Below, piece by piece: positions 18,157 through 63,550 of a DNA stretch of 64,000 bases (position 1 is the stretch's first letter; each line of letters begins with the position of its first letter). A program made the position numbers and the translations under genes. The DNA is from Minisyncoccota bacterium (GTDB lineage Bacteria > Patescibacteriota > Minisyncoccia > Phycocordibacterales > UBA1550), in NCBI GenBank assembly GCA_023229865.1, contig JALNYL010000001.1:23008-87007 (forward strand), written 5' to 3'. Under the pieces are notes generated by a model. It saw nothing but the letters and a program-made list of their open reading frames with translations, had not been told where the DNA came from and did not search any database.

Positions 18157-18726
18157 CTAAAACACTCTACCGCTTTTCTTGAGCTCTTTGCGGAGTGAGA
18201 GGTAGTTAGGAATTGCTTGTGCAACAAGGTTCCAGAACTTATGTGAATGGTTGAACTCCTTGAGATGGCAGAGCTCGTGCACGATGATGTAATCAGCGAG
18301 CTCGGGGGGCAGGAGGGCTATCCTGTAGTTGAAATTAAGATTGCCTTTGCGTGAGCAGCTTCCCCACCGTGTCTTCTGATTTTTGATATTTATCTTGTTG
18401 TAGCTGAAGTTGTAAAACGTATTGAAATACTCCAAGCGCGCTCGTGCTTGCACGAGCGCGCGCTCCTTGTACTCTGCGTATTCCTTCGAGCTCCCCTTCT
18501 TCACAAATACTGCACCTGAAAAACTTTTGAAGTGCTCGAGCTTCTCAATGATCCACTGCGATTTCTGGAGGATATATTTCTCAATCATTCCCTCCCCGAT
18601 CCCACGTGGCGCCGTCACCACAAAAGCCCCATCGCAATATATTGCGAGTCGTAACCTCTTCGCCCGCGCACGCACCTTGAGCGTATAAGGGACTTTCTGC
18701 TTTTGAAGTTCAATGTGCTTTAGCAC
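18157..18726 (-). CDS. YgjP/DUF45-like M48-type metal-dependent hydrolase
   Basis: Zinc motif HELCHL near C-terminus. N-terminal region typical of DUF45. Confidence 0.7.
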   Translation of the reverse strand: MLKHIELQKQKVPYTLKVRARAKRLRLAIYCDGAFVVTAPRGIGEGMIEKYILQKSQWIIEKLEHFKSFSGAVFVKKGSSKEYAEYKERALVQARARLEYFNTFYNFSYNKINIKNQKTRWGSCSRKGNLNFNYRIALLPPELADYIIVHELCHLKEFNHSHKFWNLVAQAIPNYLSLRKELKKSGRVF

Positions 18727-18735
18727 GGAATTTAT

Positions 18736-18939
18736 TTATAAACCTGACCACTCCTTTTCACATTGCGCACAACGCTGGTTACCAGTATGTTCAAAAATCT
18801 CAGTAAATTTGTTTGGTTGGTATATTTTATCATCCTCATCCCAAAAAAATTCATCATCAATAATTGTCTCCACTAATTTACGCTCACTGCCACAAAATTG
18901 ACACGCATATTTAGGAAATATATTTATTTGATTATCCAT
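18736..18939 (-). CDS. Small zinc-ribbon protein (hypothetical)
   Basis: CQFCG...CAQCE. AT-rich codon usage like the neighbouring islet genes. Confidence 0.4.
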   Translation of the reverse strand: MDNQINIFPKYACQFCGSERKLVETIIDDEFFWDEDDKIYQPNKFTEIFEHTGNQRCAQCEKEWSGL

Positions 18940-18973
18940 ACCTGATCCTTGATCAAATACAAAAGAAAGTCAA

Positions 18974-19741
18974 CTACACAAGGCGGTACTTTCCTGCATC
19001 AATAAATTCAAGATAGTTCTTGTCTCTCAAAAACTGTAATTGCTGTCTAATTTTTGGCTTAATGTTTTTATTTTCAGGATGAATGACAGATAAATTTTTT
19101 TCAAAATTATACACGTCTTGCAATGTGAACTCCTTCTTATTCAATGAATCAATACAATTCATTATGTCCAAAATCCATCCTTTTGCATCGCTCTTTTTAA
19201 TCTGTTTCAAAAAGACAGTCTTTTGCCATTTTTCTAGTACTTCTTTCTTGCTAAGTTCTTTTCCGTTTTCAATATAAAAAATCTGCCCTGCTTTTGGTAT
19301 TTTTGAAAACAAAATATTTGAACCAACCCAGCCAGCTCGTCTTGCACTTTCTGCTAGTGGTTTTCTTTCTTCAATAATTTCTGATACAAAAAAGTGTTTT
19401 GGAACAACGAAAAAATCATTTACTTTCCAGTCTTCAACCAAATAGCCCATAAAAAAGAAATTTGGTTTTTGCGGTGAATTAATTCTCTTCACCATTTGAG
19501 AATATGCACCAGCAGAAACTTTGTTTCCCATTTTTCCCTTTTTAGATTTTAACTCAAAATCTTCTGCACATTTTTTACAATAAAAATCAGCAACAGGCTT
19601 ATTGTTTTCGTAGTCAGAAACACCATAGCCACAACTCGGGCAATATATTTCATTAAGCACCCATTTTTCAGTCAGAACTCGAGCCTTTTGCGAGTTGCTT
19701 ACGTAAGCATCAGCTATCTTTGTAACAAAATTTAAGTTCAT
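18974..19741 (-). CDS. DpnI-family methylation-dependent type IIM restriction endonuclease (cleaves Gm6ATC in characterised members)
   Basis: Strong recalled similarity to S. pneumoniae DpnI over full length (SNSQKARVLTE, YCPSCG, NKPVADFYCKKCAEDFELKSKKG, PNFFF, RRAGWVGSNI, C-terminal winged helix IRQQLQFLRDK). Start refined to ATG 19741 (255 aa). Low GC. Confidence 0.8.
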   Translation of the reverse strand: MNLNFVTKIADAYVSNSQKARVLTEKWVLNEIYCPSCGYGVSDYENNKPVADFYCKKCAEDFELKSKKGKMGNKVSAGAYSQMVKRINSPQKPNFFFMGYLVEDWKVNDFFVVPKHFFVSEIIEERKPLAESARRAGWVGSNILFSKIPKAGQIFYIENGKELSKKEVLEKWQKTVFLKQIKKSDAKGWILDIMNCIDSLNKKEFTLQDVYNFEKNLSVIHPENKNIKPKIRQQLQFLRDKNYLEFIDAGKYRLV

Positions 19742-19982
19742 AAATATCAGAAAGTATACCACGCACAGAAGATTTTGAACTACACCCAAGGCAGAAAATC
19801 CCACCTTAGAATGGGGTTTTCTAAAGTTGTGAGCCTAATCGAGATGCGACCCAAGGATACATTACCCTGTAAGGCTTATTTTAGCTCTTTCTGTCCCGTT
19901 AATCGACCCTTCTCGAGAGTTTGTAACAGTTAGCCAAACATGAATTCCGAGCTATGAAAGACATTTAAATAATGAAGATCTT

Positions 19983-21476
19983 CTATCTCTTTTGGAGTGG
20001 ATTTAATATCTCTATGCATCTTTCTAAAATTTCAGGATTATTCACTATAATTATCTTAAGTTCTTTTCGCACTCTTGTTATAGCTTGAAAAAGCATTTTA
20101 TGCGGCAAATAAGGACCATTTGTAGTGTGAGTTAGTTCACCTGTTTCTTTATATACAAATTTTTCTCCCACAATTACTACAACTTTATCAAATTCTTGTC
20201 CTATAACACCATGTGCATTCGCTGAAGAGTTAGTGTGTATATTGTATGTTTCATATATTGAGCTTCCATGCAACTGTTCTGTGTAATTTATATATACCCA
20301 CCGTTCATCTTCAAGATTCTTTACATAACCACCAACGCAATTCATATTTTCAAAATACTGTATCGTGACATTTTTATATGCCCTTTGAGATTTGTTTTCT
20401 TTTTTATTAACAAATCTTTTTATAAAAGAAGAAATTTCTTTATTCGTTCTTATATTTTCAGATAGCTCGAAATGATTTTTTATCCCCTCAAATAATTCTG
20501 CGGCAGATCTGTTACCATGCTTACCATCTATAAGACTTAGCGTTTGGGTTTTGTCGTAACTAAATAAGTAATTGAATTTTTCTTTATTATTTATAATTAC
20601 AGTCAATTGTATTGAACGAATTCTTTGGGCTTCATCAAATATTATTAAACTGTAGCTGTCTTTAACCCTTTGTTCTGTAAATTCGCTTATCGAAATTAAA
20701 TCAAAATTATGCACATCCCTTAACTTTACTTGTCCTAGATTTAATTTTCCGCAATGAACAATCAGTACTTTATTGTGATTAGATATTATTTCCTTTGCTA
20801 TATCATACACAAGTAATGTTTTTCCTGTTCCTGCTTTTCCAGAGATAGCACAAGGGCCAAATTCATTTTTCGCCATTATCTCCAGTATAGATTTCTTAAT
20901 CTTTACTTGATGATCGGTCAAAAAATATTCACCTTTTATAAACTTATCAGTACTATTGAAAGGCGACACAAGAAATTCAGATGGATCAAATAGTGAATCC
21001 AAATTCTCTTTTGTAGGGGAATCCGTCAACAAAACTTCTAGTAAGTCTTTTACTTCTAACTCACTTAGCTCTTTCTTTTCATTAAGAATATATAGTTTAT
21101 CTTCGTTTGATTGATAAGTGATGTTATAAATTTTATCTTTTCCAAGAGAATCAAGATAGTATTTATTTTGTGTTAACTGTTTCTTTATATTTTCTTCACT
21201 TGCGCCAGATTTTAATTCAATATTAATAACCGAATTTTTTGTGATTCTCAGTAAATCAAACTCTTTGGATATCTGCGGTATTTTATATCCAATATAATAC
21301 CCATCAAAGATATTTGGACTTTGATATTCTCCAAACAACTTTTCTATGAATTTCGATAGATCTTCTATTTCATTATCTTCAAGATTTACGTTTAGGTATT
21401 CTAAATACTTCTTAAATAATTCATCAGATAGATTATTTTTCGATTCTAATATTGATAATAAGTTTGTAAAGTTCAT
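19983..21476 (-). CDS. NERD / PD-(D/E)xK nuclease domain fused to P-loop ATPase (DUF2075/Schlafen-like helicase-type)
   Basis: N-terminal EFDLLRITKNSVINIELKSG (NERD-like D...E-x-K). Walker A SGKAGTGKT, Walker B LIIFDEAQR. Very AT-rich. Confidence 0.7.
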   Translation of the reverse strand: MNFTNLLSILESKNNLSDELFKKYLEYLNVNLEDNEIEDLSKFIEKLFGEYQSPNIFDGYYIGYKIPQISKEFDLLRITKNSVINIELKSGASEENIKKQLTQNKYYLDSLGKDKIYNITYQSNEDKLYILNEKKELSELEVKDLLEVLLTDSPTKENLDSLFDPSEFLVSPFNSTDKFIKGEYFLTDHQVKIKKSILEIMAKNEFGPCAISGKAGTGKTLLVYDIAKEIISNHNKVLIVHCGKLNLGQVKLRDVHNFDLISISEFTEQRVKDSYSLIIFDEAQRIRSIQLTVIINNKEKFNYLFSYDKTQTLSLIDGKHGNRSAAELFEGIKNHFELSENIRTNKEISSFIKRFVNKKENKSQRAYKNVTIQYFENMNCVGGYVKNLEDERWVYINYTEQLHGSSIYETYNIHTNSSANAHGVIGQEFDKVVVIVGEKFVYKETGELTHTTNGPYLPHKMLFQAITRVRKELKIIIVNNPEILERCIEILNPLQKR

Positions 21477-21564
21477 AAATCAATAATAACAAACACGCCT
21501 CAAAAGTAACTTTTTCTTAGTCTTAGATTCGAGCCTTCTCGAGTGCTCGAACCAGCTCTCTTTG

Positions 21565-21636
21565 TGACCTTACGGAGAATCGAACTCCGATTACAGGAAT
21601 GAGAATCCTGTGTCCTAGCCGTTAGACGATAAGGCC
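21565..21636 (-). tRNA. tRNA-Glu (anticodon CUC)
   Basis: Minus strand GGCCTTATCGTCTAACGGCTAGGACACAGGATTCTCATTCCTGTAATCGGAGTTCGATTCTCCGTAAGGTCA. Cloverleaf with anticodon loop TTCTCAT, T-loop TTCGATT. CCA not encoded. Confidence 0.8.
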
Positions 21637-47041: not shown

Positions 47042-47062
47042 ACGCGAATTATTAAGAAAAGA

Positions 47063-47096
47063 AAAAAAACGGCATGATGAGCTCATGCCGTTTTAT
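47063..47096. terminator. Terminator hairpin (copy 1 of duplicated hairpin)
   Basis: aaaaaaaacggcatgatgagctcatgccgtttta. Confidence 0.55.
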
Positions 47097-47106
47097 GTTG
47101 ACTACT

Positions 47107-47394
47107 TTAAGCGCACACCTTTTCCCCGAGGGTCAGGATATTCTTTTCGAGCAGCTGCCGATGATGCTTCCGATCAGATACCGTCCTGATGAAATCAACC
47201 GCGTCCACAAGTGGTATGTCCAAATGTGTGGCGAGCTTTTCTGCATCGTTTTTGACGACAAGCGGAGAAACGAGTTCAAGATTCACCCCACTTCCTTCGC
47301 CAAAGAGCGGTATCTTAAAATCATGCACACTATCGGCGCACATCAAATACATCAATGCAATCTCTTGCAAGCGATTCCGAGACAATGAACTCAT
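47107..47394 (-). CDS. Hypothetical protein, paralog A (IPLFGEGSG family)
   Basis: RBS GGGAGGAAG upstream of ATG 47394. Shares IPLFGEGSG and AVDFI motifs with 47511..47861. Confidence 0.45.
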   Translation of the reverse strand: MSSLSRNRLQEIALMYLMCADSVHDFKIPLFGEGSGVNLELVSPLVVKNDAEKLATHLDIPLVDAVDFIRTVSDRKHHRQLLEKNILTLGEKVCA

Positions 47395-47464
47395 AGCTTC
47401 CTCCCTGTGGTTATTTACGGAGTATTTTCCCTTTTCAAAACTACCACTGAGTTGACGAAATGTC

Positions 47465-47499
47465 AAAAAAGAACGGCATGATTATCTCATGCCGTTTTA
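47465..47499. terminator. Terminator hairpin (copy 2)
   Basis: aaaaaagaacggcatgattatctcatgccgtttta. Near-identical to 47063-47096. Confidence 0.55.
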
Positions 47500-47510
47500 C
47501 GTATTGGTTT

Positions 47511-47861
47511 TTATCGAAAACGCCCTGGTCCTTCTTGCTTCTTGTGATCATCGATAAGCCTCTGGAGATGTTTCATGCTGCAAATCTTCTCAATAAAATC
47601 GACGGCTTCCTGATGTTCAATACGCAGACGCTCGGCAATTTTCTTTGCATCGCGATTGATTTTGTCCATCGACACGGGGGCACCATTTCCACCACTCCCC
47701 TCGCCAAACAAGGGTATTTCCAAACCCTCGATACTATCGCCGTACAGAAGAAACAGTAGGGCAATTTCTTTGTATCGATCGTATTCCCTCTGACGTTCCT
47801 CGGGTGACATCGGCATAACCCCACTGTGAATAGGTATTCCCATCGGTTTAATCTTTTGCAT
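47511..47861 (-). CDS. Hypothetical protein, paralog B (IPLFGEGSG family)
   Basis: RBS AGGAGG 5 nt upstream of ATG 47861. Confidence 0.45.
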   Translation of the reverse strand: MQKIKPMGIPIHSGVMPMSPEERQREYDRYKEIALLFLLYGDSIEGLEIPLFGEGSGGNGAPVSMDKINRDAKKIAERLRIEHQEAVDFIEKICSMKHLQRLIDDHKKQEGPGRFR

Positions 47862-47935
47862 GGTTTCCTCCTTTGTACGTTTTGAGAAGTATTTCTTCCT
47901 CAAAGCTACCACAACGAGCAGTAGCAGTCAAAAAC

Positions 47936-51883: not shown

Positions 51884-51950
51884 TCCGCGGTAGCTCAGTG
51901 GCAATAGAAATTAGCCAAGCGACTGTTTAACAGTCGCAAATGACGCCACC
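51884..51950 (+). pseudogene. Degenerate partial copy of tRNA-Asn (5' half through anticodon region), not foldable as tRNA
   Basis: TCCGCGGTAGCTCAGTGG and AAGCGACTGTT match the intact tRNA-Asn 95 bp downstream. D-arm is disrupted by insertion. No T-arm or acceptor 3' strand. Confidence 0.4.
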
Positions 51951-51978
51951 AAAGGATTGTTTAAAATAGTGCCCATAT

Positions 51979-52050
51979 TCCGCGGTAGCTCAGTGGTAGA
52001 GCAAGCGACTGTTAATCGCTTGGTCGTAGGTTCGATCCCTACCCGCGGAG
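51979..52050 (+). tRNA. tRNA-Asn (anticodon GUU)
   Basis: TCCGCGG-TA-GCTC-AGTGGTA-GAGC-A-AGCGA-CTGTTAA-TCGCT-TGGTC-GTAGG-TTCGATC-CCTAC-CCGCGGA-G. CCA not fully encoded. Confidence 0.85.
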
Positions 52051-52059
52051 CAATAAAAG

Positions 52060-52092
52060 AAAAGGCCCTCATCCTGAGGGTCTTTTCTTTTA
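52060..52092 (+). terminator. Terminator after tRNA-Asn
   Basis: aaaaggccctcatcctgagggtcttttctttt. Confidence 0.55.
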
Positions 52093-52102
52093 TCCTGCTT
52101 CC

Positions 52103-52212
52103 GCGAGTGTAGGGATCGAACCGTAGGCCCACCATTTTGGGGATGAGAGTAACCTCGAAGACCTACAAAATGGATGGTCTCGACCGCAGGGAGAGGCGAT
52201 CCCTACTCGCGC
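52103..52212. repeat. 110-nt element bounded by 15-bp inverted repeat (GCGAGTGTAGGGATCG/CGATCCCTACTCGCGC); contains inverted copy of tRNA-Asn T-arm/acceptor
   Basis: Minus strand carries TTCGATCCCTAC, 12/12 identical to the tRNA-Asn T-loop/stem, followed by an acceptor-like CGCGGA. Internal 8-bp pairing CCATTTTG/CAAAATGG. Confidence 0.45.
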
Positions 52213-52243
52213 AAATTTTGACCAAAACCCGCGGAGCTATCAC

Positions 52244-53675: not shown

Positions 53676-55106
53676 ATGCTTTCTACTGTTATACCTGCGA
53701 TCATTCTCGCATTACTTGCGGGACTTCTCGTGAAATACATTCTCGAGAAAAAAGGTGGCGAGGAACAAATCACCGCATTCGAACTCAAACTCGGCGCCGC
53801 TGTCATTGCTTTTATTGTGGCACCACTTGTGGGATACATCGGCTGGGAAGTCTCTCGTTCAAACCAAATCGTTTACAACGAATACTGGAATGGATGGGAA
53901 ATTGCCGCTGAGCGTAATGATGTCTCCTGCACAAGAGATGGTCCGTGTTATTGGGAATATGATTGCGACCCGTACCTCGTGTATGTGTCGCGGACATGCA
54001 CCCGGCCTGGCAAAAATGGTGGGACATACGAATGTGGCGGATACGAAACACGCTACCACAGTTGTCCTTATGTTACCGTTGAAACAACGTACAACGTACG
54101 CACAACTCTCGGTGGATACACTGTTGCCCCACACCGCTTCCCCGACGATCCGCAATCGCATCGCTGGAGAACTTCGAAAAGTATTCCTGACAGCACCATC
54201 AGCAATGCTGGCGTCGGGATTCCGAAATTCTGGAATGAAGTGTGGATGCGCATTGCTTCGGGGACACCCAACCCGGCAACCACCAGGAAGGAGTACAAAA
54301 ATTACATCCTCGCAAACGAAGGCACCATCCTCAAACAGCACTCGGCAAACATCGAGCATTACCTGAAGCAGGGTCTCCTGCCTCCGGTGACGGCTTCTGT
54401 TGTCGGGCTGTATGGGTCCAACAAGGTTTATTTCGTTGGACACCGTCCGGGGAATGCGACCGTGTGGCAAAGCACCCTGGAGCACCTCAATGCCGCTTTT
54501 GGTACTGAGCTTCAGGGCGACCTGCACGTCGTCATCGTTCAAAACGATGCAGTAAACGCGGACTACGATACTTACGTTTTAGCCCTCAAGGCATACTGGC
54601 AAGACAATAAAGTCTTCGGCAGGGATGCGTTCGGCAAAAACGGCGTAGCAGTAATCCTCGGAACAAACGACGGGAAGACGGTTGCATGGGCGCGTGCTTT
54701 TACGGGCATGCCCCGTGGCAACGAACACATGATTGTCGCTCTCGAAAGCGGCCTCAAGGGGCAGCTCCTCGATTCGACTATCGTACTCGGAACAATAACG
54801 CCGACCTCCGTGGTCAGCAAAAGTCCGAGTAGTGTTTCCCTTCGCATCACCAAAACCGACCGGACCGGAATCGTCCCCCGCATCATTTGGGGTGACGACG
54901 ACAAGTCGTTCCGCTTCGAGCGGATCGGCATGACCGGGAAGGGTTCTGGAAAAGGTAGTGGTTACTTGTATCTTTACGGCGAAATTCAGCCGACTGACAC
55001 GCAAAAGAAATGGATCGGATTTTTCGTCTTTTTATTTTCGTGCGTCTTCTGGTTTATCGCAGCAGCGCAAGACATTAGCAACACAAGGAAGTCGTCGCGG
55101 TACTAA
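53676..55106 (+). CDS. Membrane protein with N- and C-terminal TM helices and large Cys-rich extracytoplasmic domain (hypothetical)
   Basis: RBS GGGAGAAATATTATG. TM 5-25 and 445-465. Multiple Cys pairs (CTRDGPCYWEYDC, CTRPGKNGGTYECGG, SCPY). Confidence 0.55.
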   Translation: MLSTVIPAIILALLAGLLVKYILEKKGGEEQITAFELKLGAAVIAFIVAPLVGYIGWEVSRSNQIVYNEYWNGWEIAAERNDVSCTRDGPCYWEYDCDPYLVYVSRTCTRPGKNGGTYECGGYETRYHSCPYVTVETTYNVRTTLGGYTVAPHRFPDDPQSHRWRTSKSIPDSTISNAGVGIPKFWNEVWMRIASGTPNPATTRKEYKNYILANEGTILKQHSANIEHYLKQGLLPPVTASVVGLYGSNKVYFVGHRPGNATVWQSTLEHLNAAFGTELQGDLHVVIVQNDAVNADYDTYVLALKAYWQDNKVFGRDAFGKNGVAVILGTNDGKTVAWARAFTGMPRGNEHMIVALESGLKGQLLDSTIVLGTITPTSVVSKSPSSVSLRITKTDRTGIVPRIIWGDDDKSFRFERIGMTGKGSGKGSGYLYLYGEIQPTDTQKKWIGFFVFLFSCVFWFIAAAQDISNTRKSSRY

Positions 55107-55135
55107 TTGTTTCAACAACCACAAGGAGAGCAGTA

Positions 55136-55780
55136 ATGGAAAAAGCAAAATGGATTACCCCTGGTCGTGTCATCTTCGTGGCGCTGGTTGCCATTGGCAT
55201 CTGGGCGTACACGTACGCCAACGATCTGTGGAACACAGCAGTCCCCCACCAAACCGGCCTCAATGCGCAGTACAAGCAGAACCAAAGCTACCTTGCTGCG
55301 TACGAGTCTGGCTTCTTCGAAATGCTGGGTGTCGCAAACGTGAAGAGCGACAAGCTCAACAAAATTCTTCTTGATTCAGTCAAGGGGCGTTACGACGGCA
55401 ACTCTTCAGCAAAACCCGGGACAGGGATGCTGTTCTCGGCAATCGCGGAAGCGTACCCCGACCTTAAACAGTTGGATATCTACGACAAGGTCACCGACTA
55501 CATCGTTGCCCAGCGGGCAGGATATAACGGTCTGCAAGTCGCCTTGCTCTCCAGGATTCAATCTTTCGATACCTGGCGTCAAAGCAACCTTGTGCAAAGC
55601 CTGCTCATCAAGTATGTGCTCAATATCCCCAACAAGGATTTGATCGCGTGCGCGGGCCCGACTGACTGCAAGTACGGGGCAGAAGCTCTGGAGCGCATGC
55701 GCAACATCGTGCTCACCGAAGGCACCGAAAAGGCCTACGCAACGAGCAAGATGGCGCCACTCGTGGCTCCCAAAGACTGA
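55136..55780 (+). CDS. LemA-family protein
   Basis: N-terminal TM then LNAQYKQNQSYL...DSVKGRY, resembling the LemA core (..NQYQRR.DLIPNLV..VKGYA). Confidence 0.45.
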   Translation: MEKAKWITPGRVIFVALVAIGIWAYTYANDLWNTAVPHQTGLNAQYKQNQSYLAAYESGFFEMLGVANVKSDKLNKILLDSVKGRYDGNSSAKPGTGMLFSAIAEAYPDLKQLDIYDKVTDYIVAQRAGYNGLQVALLSRIQSFDTWRQSNLVQSLLIKYVLNIPNKDLIACAGPTDCKYGAEALERMRNIVLTEGTEKAYATSKMAPLVAPKD

Positions 55781-55795
55781 TCACACCTTGATCAC

Positions 55796-55830
55796 AAAGC
55801 CGGAAGGAATCCCCTTCCGGCTTTTTTATT
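55796..55830 (+). terminator. Terminator
   Basis: aaagccggaaggaatccccttccggctttttta. Confidence 0.6.
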
Positions 55831-55906
55831 TACAAATCAAACACTGGACATTCATTCCCCTCTGTGGCATTGTTGGACCAGTTGAACATTCAAAAAGGAG
55901 CAGACC

Positions 55907-56902
55907 ATGAAAGGACTCAGACTGAGCTCTCTCACGGGAGAGCTCAAAAAAGTTGCTGAAAAGTATCAAGGCAAACCAGCTGCGACAATAAAAAGCCCCA
56001 CGAAAAGAATCGACGAGTTCTGGAAAAAAGAAATGAGGAACAGGGCTGATTCAACTCGTTTCCATGATTACTATTCTCGCCTCCCCTTGCAAGCATTGAG
56101 CAAGTTTTCATTCGACGAACTCTGCAAATTAAATTATTCGACAATATTTTTTATGCACGAGACCGTCGGAAAACTCTTTGCGACAAAAGCTCGCTATGAG
56201 ATTGTTGAAAAAATCAAGAGCTCAATGTGGCGATGGGGCTCTGGTGCGTATGTGTGGAATGAGGTTGTAGATGCGTACGAACATATCCGTAACTTTGTTT
56301 TTCACGAAGACCCAAACTTCGAAATCAGGATCGACCATTCGACACATCACCACGAGTGCGGTTATGCGAAATACAGTCGCATATTCATCGATGGCGTCTT
56401 TGCCTCCCTGGTCTATTACAAAAAGAAACATGTGATGACCATTGGGTTCTCAATCACGGAAGGCCGACGAGTGCTCATACAGCAAGTGCAGTCAGCGGAG
56501 CGCTCAGGTAATAGATATCTCTATCGCCTCCCCGCCAACCGTATGGAATTTGTCATTGAGCTTTTTCAAAACAACTTTCCTGGGTACGGACTGTACGTAA
56601 TTGACGCAAAGTTTCTCCTTGGCAAAACGCTCCGAAGCTATCGCAACGCACTCGACCTCGCCAACATCCGTGCAACACGACTTCAGCAAGAAGCCGACTC
56701 TTGCACAGACTTCAAGAGGGCAGATGCATTGAAGAGGCTCACAAAAACAATAAGTGAGGTGCGACTGATCAAAGAACATATCAATCACCTCCGTGATGAC
56801 CAAGACCGTCTCGATGCATTCTACAGAAACACGGGTAGATTCAGACTTGATTCTGAAAAATTCATCGTAAATAATCTTGTTCACTATAAGGCAACCACCT
56901 AA
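55907..56902 (+). CDS. Hypothetical protein (331 aa)
   Basis: RBS AAAGGAG upstream. No recognisable domain. Confidence 0.5.
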   Translation: MKGLRLSSLTGELKKVAEKYQGKPAATIKSPTKRIDEFWKKEMRNRADSTRFHDYYSRLPLQALSKFSFDELCKLNYSTIFFMHETVGKLFATKARYEIVEKIKSSMWRWGSGAYVWNEVVDAYEHIRNFVFHEDPNFEIRIDHSTHHHECGYAKYSRIFIDGVFASLVYYKKKHVMTIGFSITEGRRVLIQQVQSAERSGNRYLYRLPANRMEFVIELFQNNFPGYGLYVIDAKFLLGKTLRSYRNALDLANIRATRLQQEADSCTDFKRADALKRLTKTISEVRLIKEHINHLRDDQDRLDAFYRNTGRFRLDSEKFIVNNLVHYKATT

Positions 56903-56940
56903 CCCGCCCCCAGCACAATGCTGGCGGGCGGTTTCTTATT
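56903..56940 (+). terminator. Terminator (copy 1 of repeated hairpin)
   Basis: cccgcccccagcacaatgctggcgggcggtttctt. Confidence 0.6.
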
Positions 56941-57028
56941 TAAATTATGATTGACTTTTTATAAGCTAAGAAGCATAGTGATTTTAGTTTGTTCCTATCA
57001 AAACTCGCTCACGCAAAAAGGAGGAATA

Positions 57029-57472
57029 ATGGAATCTAGTTCCTTGAACCAAATTGAGATTTTTGCCCGCATCGCCATGCAGGGATTTGAAACACAGATG
57101 CGCATCATCGATTGTCTCGAAAACGGAGCAACCAAGCAAGCATATATTGAAGAGCTTTATTGCAAGCTCGTCACTTTCTCCGAGGCAATCGAAAAGAACA
57201 AGGAGGTGCTTTTAGCTAATATTGAGGAGGAAGCAAATGCGAGTGCGAAACAATTAGATGCGATACGCAGTTTTCTCGACGAACTTGCGCGAGCATCTGA
57301 TGAACAATATGCAAAAGTATGCGCGAACGAAATGCGCAAGTCAGAAAAAAATACTCTGCACAATATTGGTACTGACGAATCAAAATTCTCGTCGACTATC
57401 ATACAACACTCTAATGCATTGAAAAAGGAGGTTGAGGGCCTCATCAAACAAGTCAACAATCTCCGTACATAA
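57029..57472 (+). CDS. Hypothetical coiled-coil-like protein (147 aa)
   Basis: RBS AAAGGAGG upstream of ATG 57029. ORF track start 56951 lacks RBS. Confidence 0.45.
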   Translation: MESSSLNQIEIFARIAMQGFETQMRIIDCLENGATKQAYIEELYCKLVTFSEAIEKNKEVLLANIEEEANASAKQLDAIRSFLDELARASDEQYAKVCANEMRKSEKNTLHNIGTDESKFSSTIIQHSNALKKEVEGLIKQVNNLRT

Positions 57473-57473
57473 A

Positions 57474-57512
57474 CCCCGCCCCCAGCACAATGCTGGCGGG
57501 CGGTTTCTTTTT
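57474..57512 (+). terminator. Terminator (copy 2, 34/34 identical core)
   Basis: cccgcccccagcacaatgctggcgggcggtttcttttt. Confidence 0.6.
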
Positions 57513-57517
57513 ACACG

Positions 57518-57546
57518 TTGACACCTCCTCTCCTCAGTGGTAGTTT
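57518..57546 (+). promoter_or_regulatory. Promoter P1 (copy 1 of repeated promoter module)
   Basis: TTGACA-17 nt-TAGTTT followed by conserved TAAAAAAG..GCAC...ACGGAGGC leader shared with 58747-58775. Confidence 0.5.
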
Positions 57547-57588
57547 TAAAAAAGTTGCACCTTATACAATACACAAACGGAGGCTGTT

Positions 57589-57882
57589 ATGGCGACCATT
57601 GATTTCGAATTACCGCAAAAGTTCATTGACCCAAAGAACAAGGAGCATATCAAACTTGTGGCGGAACGAATACAATCAATACGCCACGGATGTGCACATC
57701 GACCTTGCCCGCCGGAGATTCAAAAAGACGGTTCGGTTCATTTCCCTCTGACCAACAACCACTGGCTTTACCCACCCAATACCATTGGCGGTGTGAAGAA
57801 AAATCACTGGAAATTGCTCGGCAGATATGACACCGACGAAGAGCTTGCGCTCATCGTCAAAGCCCTTCAGCTCTGGCTCTAA
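57589..57882 (+). CDS. Hypothetical protein (97 aa)
   Basis: RBS ACGGAGGC upstream. Probably co-transcribed with 57909..58699. Confidence 0.45.
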   Translation: MATIDFELPQKFIDPKNKEHIKLVAERIQSIRHGCAHRPCPPEIQKDGSVHFPLTNNHWLYPPNTIGGVKKNHWKLLGRYDTDEELALIVKALQLWL

Positions 57883-57908
57883 TGTACCAACACAAAAGGA
57901 GGTCATCA

Positions 57909-58699
57909 TGGAAAACGAATTGAACCTGCAAGGGCTCACCAATCTACTTCTTGAGCCGTACAAACTCGTCACCCTTGAGCCTCAAAAACTCAGCGAGGAC
58001 GGGAAGACGGTAATCCTCGCCCCCAAGCGTGGCGACAAGAAGCTCGACGACGAATACATCGACACTGCGACTCTCCCCTTCATCAATCTGGGGGAAGCAG
58101 GCATCGACCCTGAGCAGTCCCAGCATCGTGTCTTCCAAGAAATCAGGGAGCTCCTCAAGGATCGCTTGTTCGTCATCGAACCGAAGTTTGAGTTTTGGGG
58201 ACTTTTCTACGCGATGCCATTCATCAAGGCCGCCCTCGAGTGCACGGTGATTCAACTCGAATTACAGAAAGGAAATTATTGGCTTCGCAAAAAGGAAACC
58301 CCTGAACAGCAAATCGATAATTTCCTGAGCAAATATCAGGCTGAACTTTCGATTAGCATCAAAGGTGGCGCAATCCCCGGACTCAATCTCTCGAGCAATA
58401 TTCGCGGATTCACCCTTGAAGTCATCGGCTTCATCATGCCCCCTGAACGCGTCTGGCAAGAAGACACGCTCAAGGTCGCTGCAATCGGCGCGGTTTTCAA
58501 CATCATCGCCACAAAGACGGGGCTCAAGGAAACCGAAACAGACTACAAGAAGTATCTCGAGGAAAACAGTCACAAATGGTGGTTCTCCTGGTGGAATCGC
58601 ACCCGACAATGGGAAGAAGAACTCTCCCAAAGGAAGGATGCGTTCGCAAAAAACCACAAGGAACTCAAGAGAATTCTTCTCGAGCTCCAATGTGCATAA
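57909..58699 (+). CDS. Hypothetical protein (263 aa)
   Basis: RBS AAAGGAGG upstream of ATG 57909. ORF track start 57827 overlaps the upstream gene. Confidence 0.5.
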
Positions 58700-58745
58700 C
58701 CCCCGCCCTGAGCGCATCGCGCTCAGGGCGGTTTTTCTTTTGCTC
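58700..58745 (+). terminator. Terminator
   Basis: ccgccctgagcgcatcgcgctcagggcggtttttctttt. Confidence 0.6.
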
Positions 58746-58746
58746 G

Positions 58747-58775
58747 TTGACACCCGCGCTGACGAGTGGTAGTTT
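58747..58775 (+). promoter_or_regulatory. Promoter P2 (copy 2 of repeated promoter module)
   Basis: CGTTGACACC-12 variable nt-TGGTAGTTTTAAAAAAG-..GCAC, same as P1. RBS ACGGAGGC. Confidence 0.5.
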
Positions 58776-58816
58776 TAAAAAAGCCGCACATCACAACCAC
58801 ACGAACGGAGGCAATA

Positions 58817-59056
58817 ATGCCACACGATCAAGTAGTCATCGAGGAGCTCGCCCGTAAGTATCTCACTATCCCCGAAGAGGAGGTGGTGCAAGAATATTTA
58901 CTCGATAATAGAACCAGCGATGCGAAGCGATGCCTTCTCGCCAAGATTGACCTACTCTGGGACAACAGAGACATGATCGACCGGGAAGCATTGCTCGTAT
59001 ATCAAAAGCTCGGTGTCAGACCCAGGGATTGCTTCTTGCAGCCCCATCCGCTCTAA
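58817..59056 (+). CDS. Hypothetical protein (80 aa)
   Basis: RBS ACGGAGGCAATAATG. ORF track start 58766 lies inside the promoter. Confidence 0.45.
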   Translation: MPHDQVVIEELARKYLTIPEEEVVQEYLLDNRTSDAKRCLLAKIDLLWDNRDMIDREALLVYQKLGVRPRDCFLQPHPL

Positions 59057-59062
59057 CGCGCA

Positions 59063-59099
59063 CCCCGCCAACAAAATTCGTTGGCGGGGTTTCCTTTTG
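59063..59099 (+). terminator. Terminator
   Basis: ccccgccaacaaaattcgttggcggggtttccttttg. Confidence 0.6.
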
Positions 59100-59113
59100 T
59101 GTATAATAGATAA

Positions 59114-59599
59114 ATGACAAATTCCATCCCCTTTGAACACGAGCGACGCTTTGTCCCCGACGCAAAAGTGCTTCCTTTTGATTACAAAAAGTACCCCATG
59201 AAATCAATCCTCCAGGGGTATCTCAAAGACGCCGCGGGAACTCGCCTCCGTGATGAATCAGACGAGGATGCCCACACCTATCTACAGACGAGGAAAACAG
59301 GATCAGGGGTTTCGCGCACTGAAGACGAACACGAAATCACCAAAGAAGAATTCGACACCATGTGGCACGACGTCGAGTGTTCTCTCTCGAAAAGTCGCTA
59401 TTTCATTACGTGGGACGACATCGATATTGAGTTTAATGTTTTTCATGGCGCACTCGATGGGTACATGCAAATCGAAGTCGAATTTGACTCACACGACGCC
59501 GCAGTAACCTTCACTCCCCCATCCTGGCTCGGGCGCGAAGTCACCGACGACAAATCGCACGGCAATTACGCACTCGCAAAACACGGCATACCAAAGTAG
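59114..59599 (+). CDS. CYTH-domain protein (CyaB/thiamine-triphosphatase-like triphosphate tunnel metalloenzyme)
   Basis: N-terminal FEHERRF (ExExK/R-type). YFITWDDIDIEFNVFHGALDGYMQIEVEF typical CYTH beta-strands. TATAAT 7 nt upstream of ATG. Confidence 0.6.
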   Translation: MTNSIPFEHERRFVPDAKVLPFDYKKYPMKSILQGYLKDAAGTRLRDESDEDAHTYLQTRKTGSGVSRTEDEHEITKEEFDTMWHDVECSLSKSRYFITWDDIDIEFNVFHGALDGYMQIEVEFDSHDAAVTFTPPSWLGREVTDDKSHGNYALAKHGIPK

Positions 59600-59702
59600 A
59601 AATTTACATCGCCCTCAAGGTCAAAGATGAGCAGAACTCAAGCTGTGGAAAACCTCCCACATATAATAGGTTGCATAGGTATGTGTGTGGTAAAATATAT
59701 CC

Positions 59703-60620
59703 ATGAAAAAAACAATTATTATATTAGCGGTTCTTGTTCTTGTTGGTATCGGTGCGTACTTTTTTATTAAAAATTCAACAAAGACCCCTGTTCCCGAAGT
59801 GCAGGCTCCTGTTACTACTACGACGACTACAAAGACCCCCGCACCACAGCCTGTCGTAAAAAAACCAGTTGTAGACACAACAAAAACAGTTCTTGGGACC
59901 TCGGTTGAAAAACGCGATATCACCGCGTATCACTACGGCACCGGAACTAAAGAACTTTTGTTTGTTGGTGGTATCCATGGTGGATACGAATGGAACACAT
60001 CACTCGTTGCTTATGAGCTTATGGACTACCTCGCGGCAACACCTACAGCGATCCCCTCAAACGTAAAAGTTACTGTCATCCCCGTATTAAACCCTGACGG
60101 GCTCAACAAGGTTGTTGGTACCCCTGGTCGTTTTACAAAAGCAGATGTATCAACTTCAAACGATATCGTTATCTCTGGTCGTTACAACGGAAACACTGTC
60201 GACCTCAATCGTAACTTTGATTGCGACTGGCAGACCAAAGGACTCTGGCAGACCACAAGCGTGAGTGGTGGCAGTGCGGCATTTTCTGAACCAGAAAGTC
60301 AGGCTATTAAGAATTACGTAGAAGCTCACAAGCCTACTGCTGTTGTTACTTGGTATAGCTCGGCTGGCGGAGTGTTCTCTTCTAGTTGTCACAACGGAGT
60401 TCTCCCAGAGACAAAAACGCTTACTAATATTTATGCAGCAGCATCCAAATATCCAGCGTATGAAAGTTTTGATTTCTACAGCATTACGGGAGATATGGTG
60501 AACTGGCTCGCGAAGAAAAACATTCCTGCGATTAGCGTGCTTCTCACCACACACCAGGACACTGAGTGGGATAAGAATCTCGCCGGCATCAAAGCTGTCC
60601 TCAACCACTACGCTCAATAA
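59703..60620 (+). CDS. Membrane-anchored M14-family zinc carboxypeptidase (gamma-D-Glu-DAP peptidase-like)
   Basis: TM, T-rich linker. Zn ligand region GGIHGGYEWNT, DLNRNF, SEPE. Confidence 0.75.
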   Translation: MKKTIIILAVLVLVGIGAYFFIKNSTKTPVPEVQAPVTTTTTTKTPAPQPVVKKPVVDTTKTVLGTSVEKRDITAYHYGTGTKELLFVGGIHGGYEWNTSLVAYELMDYLAATPTAIPSNVKVTVIPVLNPDGLNKVVGTPGRFTKADVSTSNDIVISGRYNGNTVDLNRNFDCDWQTKGLWQTTSVSGGSAAFSEPESQAIKNYVEAHKPTAVVTWYSSAGGVFSSSCHNGVLPETKTLTNIYAAASKYPAYESFDFYSITGDMVNWLAKKNIPAISVLLTTHQDTEWDKNLAGIKAVLNHYAQ

Positions 60621-63510: not shown

Positions 63511-63516
63511 CCCGTA

Positions 63517-63550
63517 CCGTCAACGATTTTTCGTTGGCGGTTTTTCTTTC
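63517..63550 (+). terminator. Terminator (related to hairpin at 59063)
   Basis: ccgtcaacgatttttcgttggcggtttttc. Confidence 0.55.

Follow-up and report, generated by a model that had tools for sequence, protein, structure and literature searches.

Phage morons are independent transcription units inserted between phage genes (PMC3594210). We describe here a locus that invites comparison with them, a row of small genes in a 64-kb stretch of DNA (hereafter the window), which is part of the bacterial chromosome of a 'Candidatus Pacebacteria' metagenome-assembled genome (MAG; Patescibacteria). Six plus-strand genes lie within 55.8-59.6 kb, namely g331, g147, g97, g263, g79 and a gene for a 161-aa CYTH-like protein (CYTH), and among them promoter and terminator sequences recur. 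With somewhat more confidence than doubt, we read the locus as a plastic island of small genes, in which copied promoter and terminator modules act as joints for recombination. Short palindromes rich in GC, or composite repeats, that lie between genes and can end or start transcription are familiar as repetitive extragenic palindromic sequences and bacterial interspersed mosaic elements (REP/BIME), the Correia elements of Neisseria and miniature inverted-repeat transposable elements (MITEs).

Like morons, the units of the array appear, as judged from their predicted signals, to be single genes, each with a promoter and a factor-independent terminator to itself; genomes that are otherwise collinear may have or lack them, and their composition and function are unlike those of their neighbours. 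They differ from morons in lying in a cellular chromosome without a surrounding prophage or phage hallmark genes, in sharing copies of their promoters and terminators, and in being reordered and not only inserted. With integron arrays the locus has in common co-oriented single genes, a hairpin repeat after each, variable content and order, and many ORFans; however, it lacks an IntI integrase, an attI site and a common Pc promoter, its hairpins are ordinary T-tract terminators and not attC sites, and its 5-8 units have promoters of their own. In contrast to the REP, Correia and MITE repeats, the modules of the array are few and local, are without terminal inverted repeats or target duplications, occur as separate promoter and terminator parts, and are tied to changes of gene order. 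Flexible islands linked to tRNA genes come close in their adjoining tRNA, strain-variable content, stable flanks, mixed composition and abundance of ORFans, whereas the present locus has no integrase and no long att repeats, and holds a conserved backbone (g331, g147, g79 and CYTH) inside. A literature search found no relevant description of comparable arrays in Patescibacteria. We regard the array as a flexible island or moron-like accretion in which, distinctively, it is the expression signals that are repeated and exchangeable.

We looked at the signals of the array in the window. The units of g331 (55907-56902), g147 (57029-57472), g97 (57589-57882), which opens a two-gene operon with g263 (57908-58699), and g79 (58817-59056), all on the plus strand, each carry a predicted -35/-10 promoter, a GGAGG sequence, and a terminator made of a hairpin and a T-tract. 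A first reading of this DNA made from the letters alone (the sequence-only reading) had ascribed such signals to every unit, which is right for these four and wrong for CYTH (59114-59599, plus strand), where there is no Shine-Dalgarno sequence and no detectable terminator, the stretch 59597-59700 folding no better than shuffles. The terminator CCCGCCCCCAGCACAATGCTGGCGGGCGGTTTCTT, which we call T1, occurs after g331 (56903-56937, plus strand, -23.3 kcal/mol) and after g147 (57475-57509, plus strand) with 35 of 35 positions identical, where 34 of 34 had been claimed; the identity takes in the loop and an internal C.C mismatch, 0 matches are expected in shuffles, and over 38 nt the two copies agree at 37 positions. 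A T1-type variant at 58702-58741 (plus strand, -29.2 kcal/mol) keeps the outer stem CCCGCCC/GGGCGG and differs in the inner stem.

The promoter block CGTTGACACC-N12-TGGTAGTTTTAAAAAAG-NN-GCAC...ACGGAGGC, called P1, stands before g97 at 57516-57588 (plus strand, nhmmer E = 1e-17) and before g79 at 58745-58816 (plus strand, E = 1e-14), exactly in the pattern given for two module copies by the sequence-only reading. It comprises a TTGACA -35 box, an extended -10 region (TGG-TAGTTT), a leader and GGAGG. Taken with the terminator upstream, the two intergenic blocks (terminator, promoter, leader and Shine-Dalgarno sequence, about 120 nt) are about 78% identical. The two promoter copies had been placed within 55900-59600; they are indeed found there, but a third P1 copy lies outside that range, on the minus strand at 47467-47401 (E = 7e-12), before the small gene s96 (47107-47397). 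The spaced pair TTGACA-N17-TAGTTT accordingly occurs three times in the window, the third at 47466-47438 on the minus strand, against 0.08 expected. The g331 promoter, TGGACA-N17-CATTGT with a TG at -15/-14 (55845-55873, plus strand), is a weak P1 match (E = 0.012), and the g147 promoter, TTGACT-N17-CATAGT (56951-56979, plus strand), is not of P1 type and has its orthologue before g147 in the relative L034. A second terminator family, T2 (CCCCG(C/T)CAAC...GTTG(G/A)CGGGG), is represented after g79 (59062-59099, plus strand) and by a T2-like terminator after the zinc-ribbon gene zn85 (63516-63550, plus strand); the two share the 11-mer TTCGTTGGCGG, which bears out their description as variants of each other.

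All of these hairpins are near-perfect GC stems followed by T-tracts and fold strongly (-17.5 to -29.2 kcal/mol, z-scores of -4.3 to -7.7 against shuffles). The modules are no generic signals within the DNA examined: the stems of about 20 further strong terminators of the window are unrelated to theirs, and nhmmer found no P1 match in more distant Paceibacteria loci totalling about 300 kb. The window holds two T1 copies (plus two variants) and three to five P1 copies, all within two small-gene islands. No terminal inverted repeats or target-site duplications were seen at the window modules, and Rfam recognised no family in the intergenic modules. The second island is a mini-array of s96 and s116 on the minus strand (47107-47932), between fmt and the peptidyl-prolyl isomerase (PPIase) gene, with P1-type promoters and paired terminators. 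Its two proteins (96 and 116 aa) are paralogous (44% identity, E = 5e-19), their terminators at 47062-47098 and 47466-47502 are near-identical (AAAACGGCATGA..TCATGCCGTTTT), and a weak P1 match lies at 47932-47867. The site of this mini-array (47062-47932) differs in the relative L002.

A conserved leader, AGTTGAACATTCAAAAAGGAGC, follows the g331 promoter, and its orthologue is present in L002, L024, L028 and L034. As a side observation, the part AGTTGAACATTCAAAAAGGAG (55879-55898) contains the palindrome TTGAAcaTTCAA between the -10 box and the Shine-Dalgarno sequence, which is kept across species in the leaders of the same four relatives and looks operator-like. The palindrome AGTTGAACATTCAA is a putative regulator-binding site, and a box related to the g331-leader palindrome, AG(T/C)(T/C)GNAC, is common to the P1 leaders.

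The locus was then compared among relatives, recovered by means of g331, g97 and g263 homologues as anchors. All compared sequences are metagenome assemblies, spanning 64 kb for the source genome and 3-21 kb for each relative; percentages after genome names are g331 identities. The island is bounded on the left by the pyruvate kinase gene (pyk) and tRNA-Asn and on the right by a conserved cell-wall block of M14 peptidases (M14a, M14b) and a peptidoglycan-binding protein (PGb). Outside it, the flanks are collinear with those of L002 (about 70% protein identity) from MurA to pyk and from the PGb gene to the histidine phosphatase gene, whereas the island is not. In the window the order is tRNA-Asn, g95, g86, DUF4406, g476, g214, g331, g147, g97, g263, g79, CYTH, M14a, M14b, PGb. 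The same-species assembly L023 reads g147, g97, g263, g79, CYTH, M14a; L024 (78%) reads g86, DUF4406, g331 and a different gene; L028 (73%) reads g86, g97, g331, g78, M14a, M14b, DUF4406, CYTH, PGb; and L002 (70%) reads tRNA-Asn, a membrane gene on the minus strand, a GNAT gene, g331, g78, g147, M14a, M14b, DUF4406, CYTH, PGb. In L034 (64%) the order is g331, a 51-aa gene, an AAA_33 kinase gene, g147, a 187-aa gene, g79, CYTH, PGb, in L027 it is an 88-aa gene, g97, CYTH, and in L026 the neighbours of g97 are unrelated genes, of which two are encoded on the opposite strand.

With L023 counted together with the window, there are seven arrangements in all, gene content and order differing in the six recovered besides that of the window, and the locus is far from perfectly conserved across relatives. 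Wherever an arrangement has more than one island gene, these genes are co-oriented. A backbone of g331 ... g147 ... g79 - CYTH recurs, while other single genes come, go and change their relative order; genomes with g331 identities as low as 64% keep the backbone genes and DUF4406 in this part of the chromosome. The proposal of a variable accessory locus is therefore right as to the varying content and order among relatives, but the locus is not purely accessory: g331, g147, g79 and CYTH are a clade-conserved backbone, and g476-g214, g97 and g263 are lineage-restricted additions. Several units sit between genes that adjoin in a relative. This is so for g476-g214, between DUF4406 and g331 (adjoining in L024), for g263...g79, between g97 and CYTH (adjoining in L027), and for the L002 g147 unit, between g78 and M14a (adjoining in L028). 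The gene g97 is found elsewhere in two relatives, before g331 in L028 and directly before CYTH in L027, and a g79 orthologue precedes CYTH in L034. At 17 more distant g331 loci no other array gene is present; g331 is still monocistronic there, with unrelated promoters and terminators.

The modules were found to move apart from the genes. Close T1 copies (CCCGCCCCCAGCAC-NNN-GCTGGYGGGCGGTTT) stand after g331 and g147 in the window, g147 in L023, g331 and g78 in L002, g97 in L027, and g331 in L028 and L034, and a T1 subtype (CCACCCACC) stands after DUF4406 in L002 and L028 and after g78 in L028. Across genomes the T1 family thus follows five unrelated genes (g331, g147, g78, g97 and DUF4406). P1 (nhmmer E of 1e-7 to 1e-17) precedes g97, g79 and s96 in the window, g331, g78 and g147 in L002, g78 in L028 and the 187-aa gene in L034, at least six unrelated genes overall. 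Conversely, one gene can bear different signals: g147 has a promoter of its own (TTGACTTTTT...GCATAGTG) in the window and L034 and P1 in L002, g79 has P1 and T2 in the window and others in L034, and g78 is followed by different T1 subtypes in L002 and L028. T2 follows CYTH in L002, L028 and L027, whereas in the window it lies upstream of CYTH, after g79; it also follows zn85 in both the window and L002. Orthologous copies of the T1 after g331 differ between genomes at 4-6 of 35 positions and the T1 pair of the window at 0, which implies recent copying.

The junctions between units were examined in the same genomes. Direct module repeats bracket the variable units of the window, as T1-[promoter-g147]-T1 and as T1/P1-[g97-g263]-T1/P1. 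The two terminators on either side of the L002 g147 unit have the 17-mer GTGGGCGGTTTTTGTTT in common, and L028 presents the empty site for this unit, with the same downstream sequence AGTTCGCAATCATAGACAC. In L027 the T-tract of the g97 terminator joins the CYTH -10 box directly (TTTCTTTTTGTGTATAAT); the window interposes g263, T1, P1, g79 and T2 between g97 and CYTH, ending in TTTCCTTTTGTGTATAAT. T1 and P1 also occur separately, T1 alone after g331 and P1 behind other terminators at 47.4 kb and at g331 of L002, and the T1 copies after g331 and g147 cease to be identical beyond their hairpins. The bracketing repeats and the empty site are what would be seen if recombination between module copies brought units in and took them out, and it is from this junction anatomy that we infer such recombination to be the cause of the variation.

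Composition and divergence bear signs of exchange as well. The GC content at third codon positions (GC3) is 0.31-0.69 inside the island and 0.41-0.54 in core genes. Between the window and L023, whose flanks are 99% identical, synonymous divergence (dS) is 0.01-0.03 in flanking genes, 0.30 in g263 and 0.20 in g79. Within g263 a divergent patch at aa 95-117 (58193-58293) has 29 differences in 100 nt, which fits an imported divergent allele or local diversification; an origin through a diversity-generating retroelement was considered and rejected, the substitutions being without adenine bias. L023 and L002, which represent two related species, come from one sample (ERZ27247363).

We propose that the island consists of co-oriented, mostly single-gene units, each with a sigma-70-type promoter with extended -10 region and an intrinsic terminator, and that P1 with its leader, T1 and T2 are small local repeat families copied between units. 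Gain, loss, replacement and reordering of units would take place at joints marked by these copies, unit exchange being driven by homologous recombination between them. This could take two routes: a unit might loop out and re-insert in a Campbell-type manner, leaving a repeat on each side, or a double crossover might occur with DNA taken up from related strains. In either case an incoming gene would land between ready-made expression signals. The sequence-only reading had suggested that the genes were assembled by recombination between shared modules; the modules do stand beside different genes, and recombination between them is suggested by the anatomy of the junctions just described. The locus points to a simple recombination route for gene swapping and not to a new molecular machine.

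Several points weigh against the island of recombining modules. No recombination event or circular intermediate was seen, and the compared genomes are 20-35% diverged, so that breakpoints cannot be mapped to the base. The T1 identity is limited to a hairpin of 35-38 nt, which is short for RecA-type exchange, and outer stems of the CCCGCCC...GGGCGG kind arise independently in distant genomes (L004, L012), such that part of the T1 family resemblance may be convergent. Module counts cover the stretches given above. When metagenomes were scanned with a degenerate form of T1, the matches were a single known copy, from the L002 organism, and four chance ones on contigs of 55-72% GC; known copies were missed, and the scan says little on distribution. 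All sequences are metagenome assemblies, and the g331-T1-g147 junction of the window is without an independent assembly, because L001 breaks inside T1. In distant Paceibacteria, loci near g331 homologues carry repeated modules of their own (L008 11073-12740 and 8082/9137, L004 9108/9828, L016 13778/14632), examples being a 45-nt block present three times in L008 and a 32-nt terminator present twice at 100% identity; module reuse may be common in these genomes.

Of the other explanations, we considered a remnant prophage or integrative island at tRNA-Asn, whose units would be phage early genes or morons carrying the repeated signals of the phage. The tRNA gene next to the island, with 19 nt of it repeated 95 nt upstream, the PHROG matches of g476, g214 and CYTH, the homologous g476/g214 pair on an IMG/VR contig and the heterogeneous GC3 would all suit such an origin. 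We nevertheless consider it unlikely: no integrase, terminase, capsid or tail gene lies within 46-64 kb, blastn against phage and plasmid collections gave no match for the locus DNA, tblastn of g476 against phage records was empty, and the copies of the 19-nt repeat are only 95 nt apart, upstream of the tRNA and not at both ends of the island. Moreover, g331 belongs to a widespread cellular family of Patescibacteria, and it is kept with g147, g79, CYTH and DUF4406 in the same chromosomal neighbourhood across genomes. An integron-like array, in which the T1 hairpin would be the site of a site-specific recombinase, seems barely credible to us even though single co-oriented genes with a hairpin repeat after each and with varying content and order are just what it predicts; Pfam, NCBIfam and PHROG scans detected no integrase or recombinase in 46-64 kb or among the called L002 genes, the hairpins have T-tracts and are without attC-type core sites, and every unit has its own promoter. 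The spread of a small non-autonomous mobile element of the MITE or Correia kind, made of the terminator and promoter block and leaving the genes in place, would account for a composite of about 120 nt beside unrelated genes and for a P1 copy on the opposite strand 10 kb away. It would leave the permuted gene order unexplained, and the absence of visible terminal inverted repeats and target-site duplications, the separate occurrence of T1 and P1 and the mere handful of copies make it quite improbable.

Tandem duplication of whole promoter-gene-terminator units, with coding parts diverged beyond recognition and signals kept, is exactly what s96 and s116 display, with their 44% identity and common promoter and terminator. 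For the main array, we give this little credence: g331 and g147 share a 35/35 terminator without similarity in sequence or length, no pair of array proteins is better than E = 0.2, identity ends at the hairpin edges, and orthologues bear different modules in different genomes. Convergence on the optimal promoter and terminator of the organism, without copying, draws on the fit of P1 to a sigma-70 extended -10 promoter and on the recurrence of CCCGCCC...GGGCGG stems in distant genomes, but is highly improbable given that the 35/35 identity spans the loop and an internal C.C mismatch, that spacer and leader positions without known constraint are shared, and that the window has about 20 further strong terminators, and further promoters, that bear no relation to them. 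A single signalling or defence system co-regulated by a common promoter, with CYTH as effector or signal generator, had been left open by the sequence-only reading. A common promoter and a leader with the AG(T/C)(T/C)GNAC box could mean co-regulation, the patch in g263 is hypervariable, and the window has a probable DpnI/helicase defence island at another site; yet such a system has little probability, as PADLOC gave no matches, the set of genes varies, with g263 and g97 nearly ORFans, none of the other array genes accompanies g331 beyond close relatives (17 distant loci), and CYTH has its own TATAAT promoter and in relatives neighbours DUF4406. On the reading preferred here, the array genes do not form one functional system.

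The plastic small-gene island with recombining modules may have a wider bearing. Patescibacteria, also known as the candidate phyla radiation (CPR), have tiny genomes rich in lineage-specific unknown genes, and how they acquire and express genes is poorly understood. The locus offers a testable picture of a chromosomal hotspot that swaps single-gene units with pre-fitted signals, integrase and phage not being in sight. We are rather doubtful of, but would put forward, the broader notion that portable promoter-terminator modules constitute an integrase-free cassette system in Patescibacteria; with similar reserve, short repeats might supply both expression signals and the homology to capture, excise and reshuffle single genes at islands, and, as a still tentative part of the same idea, these genes might include ORFans taken up as DNA from co-resident relatives. 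Such a system may be a general trait of Patescibacteria genomes. If module exchange is true and general, it would explain how ORFans are expressed immediately, repeated terminator and promoter modules would be a signature by which to find hotspots in metagenomes, and they would be natural portable expression parts for organisms not yet engineerable. If it is not general, what remains is a flexible island, well documented, in which a backbone of g331, g147, g79 and CYTH is conserved.

The view that none of the proteins can be assigned to a family does not hold, g331 having at least 126 homologues and the last gene matching a solved CYTH protein. In a phmmer search of the PDB, residues 31-155 of the 161-aa protein matched 2FBL and 3TYP (NE1496; E = 1.2e-17). 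NE1496 (NeuTTM) is a CYTH-superfamily inorganic triphosphatase of Nitrosomonas europaea (PMC3440374), and the N-terminal hallmark motif of CYTH proteins is ExExK (PMC8233210). The window protein reads F-E8-H-E10-R-R12 (ExExR), with both Glu kept and Arg for Lys, as does its L002 orthologue. The protein also matches phrog_6660 (1e-29), and this was the sole match for any array protein when Pfam, NCBIfam, PHROG and PADLOC were scanned; for it and two orthologues, the Pfam CYTH model (PF01928) gave no match at E <= 10. By its alignment over residues 31-155 it is homologous to NeuTTM and would be a CYTH triphosphatase-like protein; it is of similar length and has an N-terminal E-x-E-x-(K/R) sequence, and it differs from NeuTTM in the Arg at the fifth motif residue, in being missed by the Pfam CYTH model and in its probably leaderless mRNA.

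A leaderless CYTH start, raised by the sequence-only reading, is consistent with the position of a TATAAT -10 box (59102-59107, plus strand) 6 nt before the ATG, where 7 had been counted. The box is identical in L023, L034 has TATATT 8 nt before the ATG, and in L002, L028 and L027 a leader that includes a Shine-Dalgarno sequence precedes the CYTH gene instead. The start in the window is thus probably leaderless. In relatives CYTH neighbours DUF4406. M14a also looks leaderless both in the window (59665-59705) and in L002 (11990-12010), with TGgTAAAAT or TATAAT 6 nt before the ATG and no Shine-Dalgarno sequence in either species.

The other array proteins were searched in the same way. The Pfam, NCBIfam, PHROG and PADLOC scans gave no match for g331, g147, g97, g263 or g79, PADLOC models at E < 0.01 matched none of the six proteins, none of the six has a membrane segment, and they are mutually unrelated (no pair better than E = 0.2). 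The homologues of g331 (at least 126 at full length) are essentially all from Patescibacteria and have strongly conserved motifs. Its AlphaFold2 model (predicted local distance difference test score, pLDDT, 94.6) has a core that weakly suggests a GNAT-like fold, with a coiled-coil hairpin: the match to GNAT acetyltransferases (Foldseek against PDB and BFVD) covers about 70 residues at E of about 0.04 with TM-scores of 0.15-0.29, there is no Pfam match, and the PDB profile search returned coiled-coil noise only. A genome-collection scan with the g331 profile found only relatives of at most 51% identity, none with the modules. A g331 homologue (39% identity) was also noticed on L020 (NZ_CP178609.1, 91282-112193), a 468-kb record entitled 'Herbaspirillum huttiense HhutSZ1 plasmid unnamed', in a region of 0.55 GC whose other genes encode mostly unknown proteins, along with AAA and T2SSE-type ATPases; either the g331 family is not confined to Patescibacteria or this replicon merits a second look.

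The fast-evolving g147, with orthologues in L002 (E = 1e-18) and L034 (9e-32), is probably helical and cytosolic. For g97 only 3 homologues, and for the ORFan g263 one, were found among 5.8 billion proteins; a scan of viral contigs gave no match for g263, and its structure prediction from a 2-sequence alignment was unusable (pLDDT 31). The small protein g79, of 79 aa and not 80 as stated earlier, belongs to a rare family with 8 relatives among 1.84 billion representatives. Compared with the same-species L023 (96% nucleotide identity), the ratio of nonsynonymous to synonymous divergence (dN/dS) is 0.23 for g263 and 0.03 for g79, which implies that both are real genes. Thus g263, g97 and g79 have few or no relatives and yet appear to be under purifying selection. 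Left of g331, g476 and g214 form a two-gene membrane-protein unit (53676-55780, plus strand) with its own promoter (53650) and terminator (55796-55830). Both have transmembrane segments; g476 matches PHROG 2087 (3e-18) and g214 matches PHROG 1383 (3e-16), a 'virion structural protein' label being among these PHROGs, and an IMG/VR contig of 108 kb has two adjacent genes distantly homologous to them (L025 6508-8531).

As to the setting, the core genes of the window include MurA, PriA, def, fmt, PPIase, HPF, pyruvate kinase and tRNA-Asn, beside two M14 peptidases, the peptidoglycan-binding protein, a methyltransferase and the histidine phosphatase. A 'Candidatus Pacebacteria bacterium' MAG contains proteins identical to g331 (M0P64_00495) and g263 (M0P64_00510). 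The left boundary, tRNA-Asn (51979-52051, plus strand; ARAGORN, Rfam tRNA 72 bits), is at the same position in L002. Its first 19 nt (TTCCGCGGTAGCTCAGTGG) are duplicated 95 nt upstream (51884-51997), with a diverged anticodon-arm copy in between; this repeat is absent from L002 and could be a scar resembling an att site, or else a partial tandem duplication at the 5' end of the tRNA. Just 3' of tRNA-Asn a non-coding stretch is conserved (window 52090-52235, L002 8584-8730), with a minus-strand T-arm-like GGTTCGATCCCTAC; a hidden tRNA was rejected there, as ARAGORN, including its intron mode, calls none and Rfam has no match.

A leader of about 90 nt before the 51-aa gene, 3' of g331, is conserved between L024 (2450-2560) and L034 (1200-1310) and absent from the window (TAGATTCATAGCGA...GGCGGAACAAAC...); it could be a cis-regulatory RNA. 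Far to the left of the island, beside tRNA-Glu (21564-21636), a stretch of low GC content (0.33-0.39) at 18157-21476 has genes for a helicase of SF1/Schlafen type and for a methyl-directed, DpnI-like restriction enzyme (Pfam DpnI, 9e-73); it is probably an acquired defence island.

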